A stretch of DNA of 64,000 nt. Origin: Naegleria gruberi. Taxonomy: Eukaryota. The notes under the pieces were generated by a model. It did no database searches, was not told the DNA's origin, and saw nothing but the letters and a program-made list of their open reading frames with translations. A program made the position numbers and the translations under genes. The stretch is from the NCBI GenBank assembly GCA_000004985.1, contig GG738845.1; one strand, written 5' to 3'. Below, one piece after another: positions 54,265-63,430 of this stretch (within the stretch, counting starts at the first letter, position 1; every line of letters begins with the position of its first letter).

Positions 54265-55656
54265 ATGAAGTTGCTTCTTGCTTACTTAATTATTTTTCTA
54301 GCAGTTGTTAGTAGAGTTATTGCTTCATCAGGTTGTATTCTCAACAGAGATGGTAACTGTGGGATGACATCAAATGCCGCTGGGGAATTGCTTCTATCTG
54401 TTGATCCAAAACAACAATTTAACACTTTTATTAAATCATCATCTGTGGGAAATAATGGGGAAGTTATCTGCAGTACCCCTAATAGTTTCATTTCCAATCC
54501 GTTATGTAAGGAAAGATGGTTTAGAAAAGCACAACACGATAAACAATTTGCCTCCAATTCCCTAAAACTGAGATGTAATATTGATGTTGTTAGGGGCGAT
54601 TGTCAAATTGGAAATTTGCATTTTCCTCCAGAAAATCAATATAAGTTCTATCATAATGATAATCAAGAAACTCATATCTGTTCATCAATCCAAGGCTACT
54701 ATTCAAATCAACTTTGTAAAGAAAAATGGTTTAGAAAATTAACATTATCCCAGCACTCACTTCTTCCTACTAGTGAAACAAGCATTCCATCCTCAATTGT
54801 TTCTCATGAGGTCAATAACATTATTGCTATCAGTTCAACTTCTCAAACCCCATCTGATGTAATTGATTTAGCGGCTTCAACTACGAACAATGTTGAACTC
54901 ACCAATGAACCTCATTTTAATACTGATCTCACTCACGACTATGATATAGTTACAGAGTTGGCAGAGGCTTTTGAGAACAATGATGAAGATGATGAGTTTG
55001 ATGAATTGGAAATTGATGACTCAGACGAAACAGATGTTGATGAAGGAACTGAACTTGTTGAGGAATTACAAAGTGAGGATTCAAACGAAACAGATATTTC
55101 AGAGGAAGAGATTCAAGAAAATGCTAATGACAACACTGGAGATGATTTTAATAATGAAGAAGAAATTGACAACAAAGAAACTTATATTGAAGAGGAAGCA
55201 GAATCCGTATTTGAAATTGATGAAGAGGACAATGTTGTCCACAATGCTGCCGATAAGCCAATCCCTTCTAATGAAATTACTAATTCTTATACCAAGGAAA
55301 TTGAAAAAACACTAAAAGAAATAATTCCCTACATCAAGAACAAACCAAAAATTGTAAATTCTGTACCATATATTCAATCCGCTACAAACGTTTCTGGCTC
55401 AATTGGTAAGGTAAACATCAAAACAGTAATTAACACTGGAAATATTAAAAATAATAGACATCACCACAAAAGGATTTCCAAAAAAAACCAAAGAAAGCTG
55501 CCACGTGTGGGACGCGAGAGAAATGAAGTGAATCAAATTACTAAAGCTGTGAAAGAAATTGAAGAAAATTTGAAATCAAGAAAATATATTGAATCCAGAA
55601 AAGAAGAATTGAAGAGGAGATTTAAAGAATTCCTTCTTAATTCACTCAGAGTTTAA
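54265..55656 (+). CDS. Secreted protein (463 aa) with a signal peptide, two Cys-containing CKE[RK]WFRK repeats, a Ser/Thr-rich linker, a highly acidic D/E block and a basic C-terminus.
   Basis: MKLLLAYLIIFLAVVSRVIASSGC… signal. Repeats …ICSTPNSFISNPLCKERWFRKAQ… and …ICSSIQGYYSNQLCKEKWFRKLT…. DEDDEFDELEIDDSDETDVDEGTE… then KNNRHHHKRISKKNQRK. Confidence 0.55.
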   Translation: MKLLLAYLIIFLAVVSRVIASSGCILNRDGNCGMTSNAAGELLLSVDPKQQFNTFIKSSSVGNNGEVICSTPNSFISNPLCKERWFRKAQHDKQFASNSLKLRCNIDVVRGDCQIGNLHFPPENQYKFYHNDNQETHICSSIQGYYSNQLCKEKWFRKLTLSQHSLLPTSETSIPSSIVSHEVNNIIAISSTSQTPSDVIDLAASTTNNVELTNEPHFNTDLTHDYDIVTELAEAFENNDEDDEFDELEIDDSDETDVDEGTELVEELQSEDSNETDISEEEIQENANDNTGDDFNNEEEIDNKETYIEEEAESVFEIDEEDNVVHNAADKPIPSNEITNSYTKEIEKTLKEIIPYIKNKPKIVNSVPYIQSATNVSGSIGKVNIKTVINTGNIKNNRHHHKRISKKNQRKLPRVGRERNEVNQITKAVKEIEENLKSRKYIESRKEELKRRFKEFLLNSLRV

Positions 55657-55700
55657 TAATATTTATTAAGAATAACTGTCACTCTAATTGAATAAATTCT

Positions 55701-56528
55701 TTATTTGGTAATCAAGTAAGGAGTATCTTTTGGAAGGTAGGTAATATTTTTTGCATTTGATAGTGTACTTGCAATTTCCTTACTAGCTTCAATTTTTCTC
55801 AATTCAATTAAACCAGAACCTGATTTGGTCATTGCATTAGATATCATTTGAGCAGCTATGGCTTCTCCTTCAGCCAAAATAATAGCTGCCTCCTTTTCGT
55901 ATTTTGATTTTTCAACAATAAAAGCTTGTCTTTCAGCTTCTTGCTCTGCTACTTGTTTCATTTCAACAGCTCTTGTAAATTCCTTACTAAAACTCAAGTC
56001 AGTAATTGAAACATCAACCAGATCAATATGGAATTTTTGTAATGCTCTTTCTCTGACCATTTTTTGTATTTCCTTTGAAATTTGTTCTCTTCTCTGTATA
56101 ATTTCTTCAGCCTTGTATCTAGCAATAACAGCCTTCATGACTTCATTTCCGACAGATGGTAAAATACGTTCATCATAATCTCCACCAAGATCTTTATAAA
56201 TAACTGGGAGTTTTTCGACAATAGGACGATGTAAAACTCTCAAAGTAATATTTACAGTTTGTAAATCTTTTGTTCCAGTCTTGGTTGTGATTTCTCTTGG
56301 ACGAACACGTACATCAAAAAAGATTGGTTTTTGGATGAACGGAATTTTAAAGTGGGTTCCTTCCCCAGCAACATAATCATCACGAATACCACCATTTACA
56401 TAGTCCATAAGAATAGCTCTCTCTCCTCCATCCACTGTGTACAAACAAGATAATCCCAATCCTAAAACTGCTGTTGAAGCAAAGGTAGCATATGTCATGC
56501 CTTTCAAAAGTTTGTCCAAAGCTTGCAT
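55701..56528 (-). CDS. PHB2: Prohibitin-2 (PHB domain, mitochondrial inner membrane), 275 aa.
   Basis: N-terminal TM, then DGGERAILMDYVNGG…FKIPFIQKPIFFDVRVRPREITTKTGTKDLQTVNITLRVL…QVAEQEAERQAFIVEKSKYEKEAAIILAEGEA. Collinear with PHB2. Confidence 0.9.
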   Translation of the reverse strand: MQALDKLLKGMTYATFASTAVLGLGLSCLYTVDGGERAILMDYVNGGIRDDYVAGEGTHFKIPFIQKPIFFDVRVRPREITTKTGTKDLQTVNITLRVLHRPIVEKLPVIYKDLGGDYDERILPSVGNEVMKAVIARYKAEEIIQRREQISKEIQKMVRERALQKFHIDLVDVSITDLSFSKEFTRAVEMKQVAEQEAERQAFIVEKSKYEKEAAIILAEGEAIAAQMISNAMTKSGSGLIELRKIEASKEIASTLSNAKNITYLPKDTPYLITK

Positions 56529-56599
56529 TTTCCGAGAATATTTTTTTAGAAAATTTTGATTGAATTTTCAATCAATAAATTATTTAATAAACCAATTGT

Positions 56600-57560
56600 T
56601 TATTGCAAATGAAATGGCAAGGTAATTGATTTTCCTTTGTAATTTTCTAAATTTTCTCCAGCAAAAGACACAAGAGGAGAAATTTCACACAATTCCTTCT
56701 TGCAATCTCCAATAATGTTTGCTCCTGCTCTTTCAAGGTACTTGGTGTGGAGCACGGATACATCCTTTCTACAGGTCTCTGGTGAATCACTATTGTTTTG
56801 ATTAGGAGCGTTTTTGAGAGGGGAAAATTCAGATTCTCTTTCTACTTGGAAAATTGTAATAGAGTTGGCAAATTCAACAATGTCAAAATTGAACAATTCA
56901 AGCTTTACACCTGCTTGTTTCTTCTTTTCTCCTGAATTGATATCAATAGATTCGATATCCTTCTTTGCAATGTGATAGAGTTTGTGTGTATTTAAAATTT
57001 GAGCACATTTTTCTAAAAAGTCCAAAGTATAGAAAAAGTTAACAATATTTCCAGCATTGAATGAAAGTTGTCCAGTTGTTTGATCAACACTTTCAGCCAT
57101 TTCCTTTGTAATTTCACTGTATTCCACAACATGGTATTTTCCATTTCTCAAAGCAAAAACGCCAACTTTTTCATGAGGCTCTCTTTTTGGAACAACCTTA
57201 GTTCCAAAATCTACACAATTCTTTACGCAATGTCCAACAAATTTTGGATCTCCAACCTTAACAAGTATGTTATCGACACAATATGAATGAATATATTTGA
57301 TTCCTCTCTCCTTCATATGATCTAACATTCCATATTTTGCCAAAGCCTGGTACACTCCTCCATTACCATTTGGTGCAGTAGCTATCAAATTTTTTTCTTG
57401 CAACATTAATTTTCCGTCCATAGAAAAGCATGGAAGAGTACCTTGTTGGAAGAATAAAATTTGGTCTTGACANNNNNNNNNNNNNNNNNNNNNNNNNNNN
57501 NNNNNNNNNNNNNNNNNNNNNNAGTTCAAAGAGCTCCTTTATGGATGTTTGTGATGACAT
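56600..57560 (-). CDS. UAP1: UDP-N-acetylglucosamine pyrophosphorylase (UAP1/QRI1), interrupted by a 50-N assembly gap.
   Basis: MSSQTSIKELFE… before the gap. After the gap: …GNGGVYQALAKYGMLDHMKERGIKYIHSYCVDNILVKVGDPKFVGHCV…VVPKREPHEKVGVFAL…VVEYSEI. The N-terminal catalytic part (L(X)2GXGTXM, DGQ motif) is missing because of the gap. Confidence 0.8.
57473..57522. other. Assembly gap (50 N) inside the UAP1 coding region.
   Basis: Run of exactly 50 'n' characters. This is a conventional scaffold-gap placeholder of unknown true size. Confidence 0.99.
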
Positions 57561-58107: not shown

Positions 58108-58968
58108 CTAGACTTCCGGAAAAGTCAAAAAGAAATAAAAAGGCGCCTTTTTAAAAAAGTGGTTTGAAAAATGTTTGAGCAATTTTTGAAATTTGTTTGA
58201 GCATAATTCAAGAAATGTTTAAACCTTTCCTGCACATTTATTGAAGCTTTCTTTTTCCTGATGTCAACATTTTCTTTACTGCATTTGCTGAAGTTGAAAG
58301 GTTCCCTAATCTTGCTGATTCTATTGTTGATGGAACGGAAGATGTTGAGGAAGTGGAAGAAAATCTTAATGAAACACCATATTCTGAATTAAGCATAAAA
58401 CAGGAACAAGAAAAAAGTGTGAAACAATTAAAAATCCAGAAGAGGAAGATCTGATTTGAACATCACTCCACCCAGAAAGAGAAAAAACCTGAACCTTATC
58501 AAAAAGAAAACAATCATCAAATCATCATGCCAAGAAAAGTTGAGGAGCTCAAAAGACCAGAGCTTTCAAAAGATTTCGTGATTGATGTAAAAAAATCCAT
58601 CAAAACTACAGTGACCCGAGATGGTGACATTCAAAAACCTTGGATCTCTTAAGGAATTGGTGGATTTTTTGGAAAAGGATATAGTTAAGAAAGAGAGTGA
58701 GTTCAGAAGTTTGAGGGCCCTTGGGGTTTTTTCAGCAAATACTTGAACGTTTTGAGAGTTGAGAAGTAATTAATCATTCTTGAGGAATTGTTTGAAAACA
58801 GTTTGAAAGTTGCTCAAGATTTTCTTGAACAAACTTTGGATGTGTTTCAAGTAGTTTTTAGGTAAAAAAGGCACCTTTTAGGCACCTTTTAGGCGCCTTT
58901 TTGCAAATTAGCGTGAAAGTACCTTAAAAAAGTCGACTTTTAGCAAAACTTTTTCTGGAAGTCTACTA
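58108..58968. mobile_element. About 860-bp non-coding element bounded by long imperfect terminal inverted repeats (MITE/foldback-like relic). It contains the 'A' repeat.
   Basis: 58108-58230 (…gacttccggaaaagtc…aaaaaggcgccttttt…gtttgaaaaatgtttgagcaa…) is the reverse complement, with indels, of 58790-58968 (…ttgctcaagattttcttgaacaaac…aaaaaaggcacctttta ggcacctttta ggcgccttttt…ctggaagtctac). Only a 41-codon degenerate ORF lies inside. Confidence 0.4.
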
Positions 58969-59335: not shown

Positions 59336-60185
59336 GAGGGGATGGAAAATCCTCGATCCAAATCCCACGCGGATCAGTCGGATCCAAGATTCCAATAAAA
59401 ACGTGAATCCTGGATCCGGATTATCCGATAGATTCAACACAAGGATTTTTTAAAAATTACTTAATTATTGTTGTTTACACTTGCTTTAACCGAAAAACAA
59501 TCTAGTTCTTCGTAATAAATTGTGAAATTTCTTGTAATGTCTGATAATTGGTAAGTTTCTTAGTTAACAGCAAAAGTTCTAAGCAATACTCGATACTCTG
59601 AAAGCTTATCGCTGCGGCTTAGTGCATACAATTTACCTTGTTTCAATATTATCAGTTCATCATTTAAATTAATATCTTCTGATTCATTAAATTGAGAAAG
59701 TATTTGGGAAGATAATTAACTTGTTTCTGAGCAAAGTTGTAATTGTTTTTGTTTGTCAAATCTTCTAGCTCTTACCAACATCACACGAGTACTTATTTGC
59801 AAAAGTAAGATGTCATCTTTTTCCATAAACATAGATACAAGTCTTGATTTTAATTCTTTAGCATCTTTACCAATTCCTGAGAGTGGATTTTCTAGTAAAT
59901 CATAGCTCTTTGTAGCATTAGATATTTTACAATTTGAGGGGAGAGTAAAGTAATCATCACGAATTGGACAATAGAACTTTTTCTTTTGGGTTGATTGGTT
60001 GTGGTGATGTTTCTCTTTATTTATTAACGTTTGAAATTGTTCCATTAAAAATTGGAAGTGCAATCCTGGATTATCGGTTCCATCTTTTGAAAGATTTTAG
60101 AAAAAGATTCATTGTTTATTAAAAAATAATCCTTCCCATCCTCCTCCAAAACGTGAGATTTGGCTTTAGGATTTTCCATCCCCTC
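59336..60185. mobile_element. About 850-bp element flanked by a 37-bp terminal inverted repeat (core GAGGGGATGGAAAATCCT) and enclosing a 115-codon ORF (59716..60063, minus strand). Candidate non-autonomous DNA-transposon relic.
   Basis: Left end 59336-59372 gaggggatggaaaatcctcgatccaaatcccacgcgg. The reverse complement of the right end 60149-60185 is gaggggatggaaaatcctaaagccaaatctcacgtt. That gives 18/18 core identity and about 31/37 overall. No obvious target-site duplication. Confidence 0.4.
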
Positions 60186-60435
60186 CTTCAACACTAATTC
60201 TTCTATTTCTACTAGTACGTTAATTGCAATTACTTATTTTATAATTTTATCAACAACAAAATAAGATGTCGTTTCTGAAATACTAAGTTTATTCTATTAC
60301 ACGCGAGTAGATTAATTCGCAAGAATAATAATAATGATTGAGGATATCATTAATCAACTTTTGTATAATATATAAACTCTAATACTTCAAAGATTTATAT
60401 CCTTTAAAGCAGGTTCCAAGGTTGATTCACTCGTT

Positions 60436-60600
60436 GGTATCTCAATCCTTGAGCTTTTAATTCATTTGTCTTATTTTATTATTTTATTATTTTGTGAGTT
60501 TAAAAACACTAATACTTCTAATAGTTGCAACTACTAGCCCAAAAAACCATCTAATCAATTCAAAAAACCTTAAAAACCATAAAAACAAAAAATACTGAAA
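60436..60600. repeat. Dispersed repeat 'B', copy 1 (direct repeat of 62068-62340).
   Basis: ggtatctcaatccttgagcttttaattcatttgtcttattttattattttattattttgtgagtttaaaaaca…tctaatagttgcaactactagccc…accatctaatcaattcaaaaaacc matches copy 2 at about 85-90%. Confidence 0.6.
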
Positions 60601-61208
60601 TATCTGAAAACTTGATAACTAATTCTCTATAGCTTCAATCAATCTTTACATAAGCAACATCAATCACACCACCAAAATCGCAGTAAGCGTTAAGCTTATG
60701 TAGGTTTATTGTAAAAACAATAAAATAAGTGTCAACTAACAAATTTCTCATTTGCAAAAATGGTACATTTCAATAGAAATTTCGGATTTAGTAAGTCAAT
60801 AATTTTTTAATAATTTATTATTTTATTGGATTTCATTTGATCATATCTAATTTGGTGAGGTCAAATGACATTTTCATTTGGATAGCTTTTGTAGTATTGT
60901 TTGGTAGTGGATATCACTATCAAGAAAAGATAGGATCATTTGTTGAGCTGGTTTTTTAATCAAATATGTGAAAATTCTAACAATTTTATATATGATTTGT
61001 GTGTTTATTTAATTTTTTAAATTTAAAGCACTGCTAATGCCAAGGCGATTAGTGATTGATTTTGAAAGCAATTAATAGATCATCTGAATTTTCTATTGAC
61101 AGAAACGTATTTTAGTAGTTCAGTTCTACCTAGTTGTAATAAACACCGGAAATTTATTTATGTTTTTAACATTAAAAGCTGAAAGTAGTAAAATGATGAT
61201 ATTTGAAA

Positions 61209-61235
61209 TATATATATATACACATATATATATAT
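61209..61235. repeat. (TA)n / (TATACA) microsatellite.
   Basis: atatatatatacacatatatatatat. Confidence 0.7.
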
Positions 61236-62067
61236 TTTAATTGATGTTTGACAAACATATCCACCACATGTATGAAAATTCGTATTTTTCATTGAAATAC
61301 TAATAAATTTCTATTTTAATTACTGCCAATTCAAACAGGCAACAAACGACACACATTATCACATTATCAGACATTGTAATAGCAAATGCTAAACCTTTTG
61401 TTGTTTATAATATGTGAAATCTGTAGACAGAAAAAAATGAAACACAGTTTTTAAGAAGAAATCATCGAAAAACTCAAGTAAAATGAAGAATAGAAAATCA
61501 CTTTTAAGGGGTAAAAAATTTAATCTGAATAGATAAATGAATTTGCGAGGAATTATGATGAAAAGGATGTAGTGAGAATGGGATTTGATAAAGAGATAAG
61601 TAAAAAACATGATGAGGAGTATGATGAAGAATAAAAGAGAAATGATTTTTCTAACATAGATAAATATAATTTTTGTTCACATATATTCACCCAATAATTT
61701 ATCAAAACAATAAAATACCCCAAATCAATTCTCATATCACAACAAAATAAATTGTAAAAATATACAAAAATTATATTCAAACTCGAATTTAGATCTACAG
61801 TATTTCAGAAACGACACTTTATGTTGTTGATAAACCTATAAATTTGGATTTTTAGTTTTTTACAATTTTATATGATTTGTGTTTATTTAAAATTTACGGT
61901 TAGAGAGGAATTTTGGATATTATAGTACACTCGTTGTTGAGGTGTTCTTTTTGTCATCATCAGTAAGTGTAATCAGTATGGAGATTCTAGTTGGATATTA
62001 TTGACAGCAATTACAAAAAGTACTTGTTATTATTATAAGACAACAATGGATTAGTGGGATAGTTAAG

Positions 62068-62340
62068 TGGTGTCTCAATCTTTGAACTTTTAATCTATTT
62101 GTCTTAATTTATTATTTTATTATTTTGTGGATTTAAAAACAGAGATTTATCCAAAAAGCCAAGCCAAAAATTCAACCAGATTGTCCTTTTTAAAAAGCCA
62201 TATCCAAAAAAAGCGGTTTGGGATAGATATTGGATATTAATATACTCTCCTTCTAATAGTTGCAACTACTAGCCCATTAAACCATCTAATCAATTCAAAA
62301 AACCATAAATTAGAAATCCAATAAAAACACAAAATAATAA
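62068..62340. repeat. Dispersed repeat 'B', copy 2, with an about 95-bp internal insertion relative to copy 1. A shorter 'C' repeat pair lies nearby (60975-61025 and 61855-61895).
   Basis: ggtgtctcaatctttgaacttttaatctatttgtcttaatttattattttattattttgtggatttaaaaaca[insert]ttctaatagttgcaactactagccc…accatctaatcaattcaaaaaacc. Confidence 0.6.
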
Positions 62341-63173
62341 AATAATGTTATTATTATTTGTTTGAGAATTAAAAATTTCAATTTATACGAGACAACAATT
62401 TGTTCTTAAGAGAATAAAATTTGAAAACCATATTCCACACAATATTGTTTTATTGTTGGAAAGTTTGATACTATTTTTCTAAATAATAACAAACTCAGTA
62501 ATTAGTGGAGATGTTATTAATTAACTAATTGATAAAATTAATCGGTGAAAGATAATAGAACCTAATATTTTGACCATATATTCTGGAATAATCGTTCAAA
62601 TACAGCAATACACAACCAACGTTTACCTTTTCAATATCTCTCCTTTACGAATTAGACAAAAGCATGCCTGTACTAGTTATAAACAATCATAAATAGTTTT
62701 CAAAGAAAACCAAGTTGGTGATGTTTAATTCGAAAGTGTATTGAAGAAAGTGTTTACATGAATTACTTAGAGAATTGAAATAATTAAAAAAGGAAAAACA
62801 AACCAAGCCTTATACAAATATTTAAAATTAATTCATCATGCATTTTATATGTATGATGATGTGGATTTAAAAACGAAACAATCTACCAACACTTTACAAA
62901 TAGTAAAATCAAAACTAAAAAATCATTAGAAATGTTGGAGGAGTGGGATGATATTTTTGAGGATATCAATAATACAAATCTTAGTATTACCATTTTATTT
63001 TCATTGTCTATATGTTTTGCCTACACTTTTGTATTATCGAATTATTTAGAGAAAAAGAATTGTAATTTTCAAAATATATATATTAACGATTGTATTTACA
63101 ATGGTAATACAAAGTAAATGGATTTTGTTTGGCGGAGGAGTCGTGTGGGATTTGGATAACAGATTTTCCATCG

Positions 63174-63430
63174 CATCATGCTAAGAAAAGTTGAGGCCTA
63201 AAAGACCAGAGCTTTCAAAAGATTTCTTGATTGATGTAAAAAATCCATCAAAACTAGGATGGTGACATTTAAAAACCTTGGATCTCTAAGGAATTGGTGG
63301 AAAAGCATATAGTTAAGAAAGAGAGTGAGTTTAGAGGTTTGAAGGCACTTAGGGTTTTTTCAGAAGTAATTAATTATACTTGTAAAAAAGGCGCCTTTTA
63401 GTAAAACTTTTTACGGAAGTCTAAAATAAC
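63174..63430. repeat. Second copy of the composite A+R repeat unit (copy 1 is 58522-58968). It carries internal deletions and lacks the left inverted arm.
   Basis: catcatgctaagaaaagttgagg…agaccagagctttcaaaagatttcttgattgatgtaaaaaatccatcaaaact…ggtgacatttaaaaaccttggatctct…agttaagaaagagagtgagtttagaggtttgaaggcacttagggttttttcag…aaaaaaggcgccttttagtaaaactttttacggaagtctaaaat is collinear with 58522-58735 plus 58862-58968. Confidence 0.6.

Follow-up and report, generated by a model that had tools for sequence, protein, structure and literature searches.

A possible decayed non-autonomous DNA transposon enclosing an orphan gene in a repeat island of Naegleria gruberi

Towards the end of a 64,000-nucleotide stretch of Naegleria gruberi DNA (contig GG738845.1, assembly GCA_000004985.1; we call the whole stretch the window, and all positions refer to it), a segment of 850 bp (59336-60185) begins and ends with inverted copies of the same short sequence. 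Is this segment the trace of a mobile element, or did its repeated ends arise in another way? The NEG-M genome of N. gruberi is heterozygous. The species has DNA transposons, its classified transposons are few, and most of its repeats are unclassified (PMC6125883, PMC12344493, PMC3164196); an element of the MuDR type has been reported (PMC3164196), and repeats make up about 5% of the genome (PMC6125883, PMC12344493). An earlier note had proposed a non-autonomous DNA transposon or MITE-like element. Our best explanation, to which we give about even chances, is a similar one: the segment would be what decay has left of a non-autonomous cut-and-paste (class II) DNA transposon with terminal inverted repeats (TIRs), of no assigned superfamily.

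The argument starts from the two ends of the segment:

59336-59369, plus strand: left terminal inverted repeat (L), GAGGGGATGGAAAATCCTCGATCCAAATCCCACG, found by repeat finding, 18-mer counts, a pattern scan and nhmmer
60152-60185, minus strand: right terminal inverted repeat (R), identical to L at 30 of 34 positions, including all of the outer 18 nt

Repeat finding paired L and R as 34-nt arms with 88% complementarity and 782 nt between them. Their outer 18-mer, GAGGGGATGGAAAATCCT, occurs at exactly two sites in the window, one on each strand, and these are the outer ends of L and R, which bears out the 18/18 core described earlier. When up to 3 mismatches were allowed, 0.07 matches were expected and none of the shuffles attained two. 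The inverted pair is thus far above chance, and chance is excluded. An nhmmer search with a profile of three copies, the third of which is introduced below, returned L with an E-value of 8e-11. The TIRs had previously been given as 37 bp long, with about 13/19 identity after the core. The inverted repeat as such stands, but a base-by-base count over positions 19-37 gives 12/19, and similarity ends at about 34 nt. Further inward, the inverted similarity reached a score of 55, as compared with 49 ± 7 in shuffles, and was not significant. L and R are themselves G+C-rich, in an AT-rich region, and form no part of a low-complexity tract, so that the earlier reservation about such a tract falls away.

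Inside the terminal repeats, both ends carry clusters of a short motif:

59370-59427, strand not assigned: left subterminal palindrome of 58 nt, its 23-nt arms (83% complementary) set around a 12-nt loop
60061-60078, plus strand: right subterminal copy of the palindrome's right arm, AATCCTGGAT..TATCGG, in direct orientation and inside the right-end GGAT/ATCC cluster

The left 130 nt contain 13 GGAT/ATCC tetramers and the right 130 nt contain 6, as opposed to 1 in the 590-nt interior, and with a window mean of 0.9 per 130-nt tile both subterminal tiles rank at the top of the window, for a motif that was picked post hoc after inspection of the ends. Most of the excess at the left end stems from the palindrome, which is rich in GGATC/GATCC. 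Folded as single-stranded DNA, the palindrome has a predicted energy of -19.6 kcal/mol (z -3.0), and 0 of 200 shuffles were as stable. The 10-mer AATCCTGGAT is found exactly only at 59406 and 60062 and is thus common to both ends, in direct rather than inverted orientation. In hAT, CACTA, P and Mutator elements, clusters of subterminal motifs are a typical feature. A reading in which the TIRs, with the left palindrome taken out, run on to about 130 nt was considered and rejected as not significant.

The segment lies in a setting that differs from the rest of the window. The window is nuclear DNA, and its ORF at 18918-20249 matches, at 100% identity, a predicted N. gruberi protein encoded on a contig of 1.56 Mb. 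As far as about 57.5 kb, genes lie densely, with long ORFs in the standard code and 32-36% G+C. From there to 63.7 kb it holds no long ORFs, has 26-32% G+C and contains several old local repeats; it is within this part that the element is found. An assembly gap of 50 N (57473-57522) adjoins this island and breaks a UDP-N-acetylglucosamine pyrophosphorylase-like gene (ORF 56600-57529, minus strand). By eye, no N-terminal half of this gene could be seen to the right of the gap, and the assembly is therefore probably missing sequence beside the island. The repeats that touch on the following are:

58523-58965 and 63174-63423, strand not assigned: repeat A1/A2, 85% identity over about 213 nt and 88% in a 41-nt tail
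60435-60602 and 62068-62344, direct: repeat B1/B2, 86-89% identity, to the right of the element
60238-60284 and 61799-61842, inverted: 47-nt pair, 87%

A2 is without about 180 nt that are present in A1. A1 itself is a possible pseudogene (ATG CCA AGA...), the upstream frame being open from about 58230 except for one stop, and features an intron-like stretch of 39 nt, GTGAGT...TTTTTTCAG, that is kept in A2; its conceptual peptide had no homologues in a word-indexed search. A palindrome, AAAAGGCGCCTTTT, with the variants GGCACC and GTCGAC, recurs at 58138, 58866, 58928 and 63386. At up to 2 mismatches these are 4 occurrences as compared with 0.47 expected, all of them within the gene-poor island, and partial copies lie at about 58877 and 58889. 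This palindrome might form a hairpin, or it might serve as a terminator or as a binding site for a protein. Rfam and tRNA scans returned nothing relevant. In sum, decayed duplications form a mosaic across the 6-kb island.

At the far side of this island lies a further copy of the terminal repeat:

63145-63177, minus strand: third and more diverged terminal copy (T3), in the orientation of R and abutting repeat A2

The earlier note had seen an 11-nt fragment (gattttccatc) recurring at 63156. This recurrence is real and was understated, since it belongs to a third copy that is 28-35 nt long as matched. The three-copy nhmmer profile returned T3 with an E-value of 9e-10. The pattern GATGGAAAATCNNNNANCCAAATCNCAC has exactly three matches in the window (L, R and T3) as compared with 0.00 expected; being derived from these same copies, it shows that the rest of the 64 kb holds no lookalikes and is no independent test of T3. 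Independently of the pattern, the 25/33 identity between T3 and R was reckoned at a probability of about 0.01 for the whole window. Neither the pattern scan nor the nhmmer profile found further terminal copies in the other 60 kb, and the terminus pattern had no match in JGI metagenome, IMG/VR and prokaryote genome collections, which are not expected to hold N. gruberi.

In pairwise alignments of L, R and T3 over 200 nt inward and 200 nt outward, similarity was no higher than in shuffled controls. The three copies are hence alike only over the core of about 34 nt, which marks them as a discrete repeated unit and not as parts of a segmental duplication. A unit of about 34 nt that keeps the same limits in three unrelated contexts is what one expects of transposon termini or of another short functional motif. 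At its outermost bases T3 departs from L and R, and the A1/A2 homology includes the last four bases of T3 (CATC); the end of T3 may thus be a rearrangement breakpoint. T3 has no subterminal motif cluster, with three GGAT/ATCC tetramers when those inside the repeat are counted. A junction with repeat A common to L and T3 was suggested by an in-register 8-mer (TTGAGGAG) and by a Smith-Waterman score equalled by 1 of 300 shuffles, but it was rejected, as nhmmer and a second alignment test lent it no support.

All three copies contain ATG GAA AAT, from which short ORFs run inward at 59342-59398 (plus strand), 60180-60046 (minus strand) and 63171-63046 (minus strand). Their peptides begin MENPRSKSH..., MENPKAKSH... 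and MENLLSKSH... and diverge wholly after about 10 residues. By our own count from the nhmmer alignment, the substitutions among L, R and T3 are spread over the codon positions as 3, 3 and 3. With no third-position bias and with peptides that part so early, these ORFs are probably coincidental. A conserved coding 5' end (MENP..KSH) as the nature of the 34-nt unit was rejected for the missing third-position bias and for want of N-terminal homology, the similarity of the MEN-type peptide to the orphan family described next being not significant.

What lies between L and R is not anonymous non-coding DNA:

59716-60063, minus strand: ORF of 115 codons from a TTG, or 109 from the first ATG at 60045
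59464-59715, minus strand: in-frame continuation of this ORF past its stop, with two further stops

The reading frame described earlier is upheld, but its 115 codons depend on a TTG start after bacterial rules; in a eukaryote, the first ATG at 60045 gives 109. The codon score is 0.125 in frame, as opposed to -0.55 and -0.62 out of frame, and the stop-free run of 126 codons falls in the top 0.3% of shuffles. Pfam returned nothing at E ≤ 10 except a chance-level DUF hit, and a word-indexed homologue search gave no hits; the ORF is no transposase. The earlier statement that the ORF has no recognisable domain thus holds for Pfam, but two significant distant homologues exist. They were the only matches of an exhaustive phmmer search over 1.84 billion representatives, namely the orphan proteins P0121 (235 aa, E 5e-6) and P0122 (185 aa, E 3e-5), both from metagenome contigs. 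In IMG sample 3300059473, P0121 has a neighbour of 788 residues. When P0121 and P0122 were searched against the window with tblastn, the sole site was 59779-60033 on the minus strand, with E-values of 1.5e-11 and 1e-10. The family core, K[YF]YCP[IL]R..[YN]F.L....[KR]ISNA[KT][RK][ST]Y..L followed by A..L.[SN]RL..M, is present in the window ORF, and a three-way alignment has 24 invariant columns. By its codon bias and its homologues, the ORF is real coding sequence, and the element therefore holds coding sequence of an orphan protein family.

An N-terminal region of about 70 residues, present in the family, is missing from the window copy. The continuation past the stop contains two further stops yet still scores as coding-like (extended frame 0.114, as opposed to -0.63 and -0.85), which suggests that it is probably the decayed C-terminal part. 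Judged from the sequence, the window copy is shortened and probably decaying. The P0121/P0122 family contains no Pfam domain; no solved relative came out of a profile search against the PDB, and scans of JGI metagenome and IMG/VR contigs gave no relatives. An AlphaFold prediction of the ORF was too poor for a fold search (mean pLDDT 55). A second copy of the ORF upstream of T3 was considered as well and rejected, as tblastn found none.

The locus of P0122 (ENA ERZ929261 contig k127_196992) is the only readable locus among the relatives. It has 32% G+C and an F-box-like neighbour; the terminal repeat is absent there and inverted repeats occur at chance level only. The orphan gene family is thus not visibly transposon-borne. 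At 369-1128 of this contig, the P0122 gene is split into ORFs of 69 and 185 codons that overlap in different frames and that, combined, match the full length of P0121; this indicates that the contig has either a frameshift or a sequencing error, or else contains an intron that went unrecognised. The ENA sample from which P0122 stems also contains N. gruberi-like DNA that agrees with the window at 99.8% identity. Exact look-ups of the ORF and its neighbours for other strains or an empty site found none on record; the one match was a prohibitin contig, 99.8% identical to the window, from a metagenome in which N. gruberi-like DNA occurs. Contigs from ENA and Logan (run ERR1078381, project PRJEB11402) are 99.7-99.8% identical to window positions 55235-57077, and this "metagenome" sample hence contains N. 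gruberi or a very close strain.

Does the segment also bear the marks of having moved? The earlier note had named target-site duplications as a check. At the 59336/60185 boundaries none was found when all lengths of 2-12 bp were compared and the boundaries were moved by as much as 4 bp; the best candidate, CTCAGACA/CTTCAACA, is 8 bp long and matches at 5/8. This is well under the 88% identity of the TIRs, and erosion is possible but must then exceed that of the TIRs themselves. The TA, TWA or TTAA duplications of Tc1/mariner, PIF/Harbinger and piggyBac elements are absent, the flanks reading ...GACA and CTTC..., and the pair L/T3 has no duplication either. In the window we found neither a transposase-encoding partner element nor a transposase remnant, be it in the six frames of 60186-63144, which gave no Pfam domain, or elsewhere. 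Inside the segment, the missing transposase and the lack of any other Pfam domain are what is expected of a non-autonomous element.

Compared with known systems, the segment shares with non-autonomous TIR transposons and MITEs the short TIRs at both ends, a small size, the lack of a transposase, an AT-rich interior and a repeat-rich intergenic location. Unlike these, it has no target-site duplication and no demonstrated multi-copy family. The earlier proposal is accordingly kept in part: TIRs with a perfect outer core, subterminal clusters, a missing transposase and a third terminus speak for it, but the target-site duplication is missing. "MITE-like" is a loose term here, as the segment differs from MITEs in carrying recognisable coding sequence and, with 850 bp, is at or above their usual size.

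Elements of the hAT (Ac/Ds) type likewise have short TIRs and clusters of short motifs in both orientations within subterminal regions of about 100 bp. Such motif repeats are seen here at both ends, for a motif chosen post hoc, and the best duplication candidate has the hAT length of 8 bp. The end of the segment presumably resembles that of Ac (GGATGGGAAAATCCCG), a lead rather than a test. Unlike hAT elements, however, the segment matches at only 5/8 in this duplication and has no hAT transposase or dimerisation domain. The YARNG start of hAT TIRs can be read on the left alone, if two bases are added (CAGAG, from 59334); on the right the sequence is AGGAG. Pack-MULEs are similar in that inverted repeats bracket a non-transposase gene or gene fragment, and many MULE ends begin GAG or GGG, as does the terminus here. 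MULE TIRs, though, usually measure 100 bp or more as opposed to 34 bp here, and their duplication of 9-11 bp is absent (3/9, 3/10 and 2/11). For want of the duplication, the segment thus cannot be placed in hAT, Mutator/Pack-MULE, Tc1/mariner, PIF or piggyBac, and for MULEs the length of the TIRs disagrees as well. We tentatively file the segment in the general class of non-autonomous TIR elements, with no superfamily.

The missing duplication leads to the question whether the repeats could have arisen with no transposition at all, by small-scale duplication or repair that copied a short sequence two or three times, partly inverted, and bracketed the orphan gene by chance. The three copies all lie within 3.9 kb, with none in the other 60 kb, and they share the island with other old local repeats (A1/A2, B1/B2 and the inverted pair); together with the exact abutment of T3 on the start of A2 and the lack of both a duplication and a transposase remnant, this is in agreement with such local rearrangement. 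Local duplications, however, normally bring along variable flank, whereas all three copies share only the limits of about 34 nt. The other repeats of the island are 40-220 nt long and AT-rich, in contrast to the G+C-rich 34-nt unit, and the motif clusters at both ends would be left unexplained. We hence regard local rearrangement as rather unlikely.

A discrete unit next to a real gene might also be regulatory or protein-binding DNA of that gene, the 34-nt unit and the GGAT/ATCC clusters then forming, for example, a promoter or 5' element with a matching counterpart downstream. R precedes the ORF by about 105 nt on its coding strand, the enclosed ORF is real coding sequence, and an inward ORF starting MEN(P/L)..KSH occurs in all three copies, so that ATG GAA AAT might mark the start of short, fast-evolving genes. 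However, the even spread of substitutions over codon positions gives no sign of selection on the peptide, the short ORFs opened by L and by T3 are unrelated beyond 10 codons, and the N-terminal peptide has no significant similarity to the orphan family. The related gene on the P0122 contig, moreover, is without the motif, and we consider a regulatory origin quite improbable. As L and T3 are also inverted, and their inner halves are slightly more alike (26/31), one could instead draw the borders of the element from 59336 to 63177, as a decayed autonomous transposon of about 3.8 kb with R as an internal or nested terminus. Against this stand the six frames of 60186-63144 without a Pfam domain, the lack of a target-site duplication for the L/T3 pair, the missing subterminal cluster at T3 and the far better pairing of L with R through their 18/18 outer core; such a larger element thus appears very unlikely.

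For the non-autonomous element bounded by L and R, we infer the following course from the repeats, the motif clusters, the discrete unit and the coding origin of the ORF. A transposase encoded elsewhere would have recognised the 34-bp TIRs and the subterminal motifs rich in GGAT/ATCC. Supplied in trans, it would have excised the segment and then reinserted it at its present site. T3 would be what survives, at one end, of a second family member whose interior differs or has been lost. The gene inside the segment is a shortened and probably degenerating member of an orphan Naegleria-type family, and would be present as a captured or accessory gene.

One may go further and speculate that the cassette is what moves in a Naegleria transposon family that is as yet undescribed, and that the family's only gene, for the orphan K[YF]YCPxR...ISNAKRSY protein, has a part in this mobilisation. 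We give this very little credence; if true, the protein would not be a passenger but a new transposition or DNA-binding protein that recognises GGAT-rich ends. A small orphan gene family exists in any case, and one of its members, apparently decaying, lies between inverted repeats. Apart from this family, the element would be a fairly ordinary relic of a familiar type. N. gruberi is a key free-living discoban, and a curated TIR family would improve the annotation of its repeats and genes. Such a family would also aid the reading of the methylated, heterochromatic islands that have been described in N. gruberi (PMC6125883, PMC12344493).
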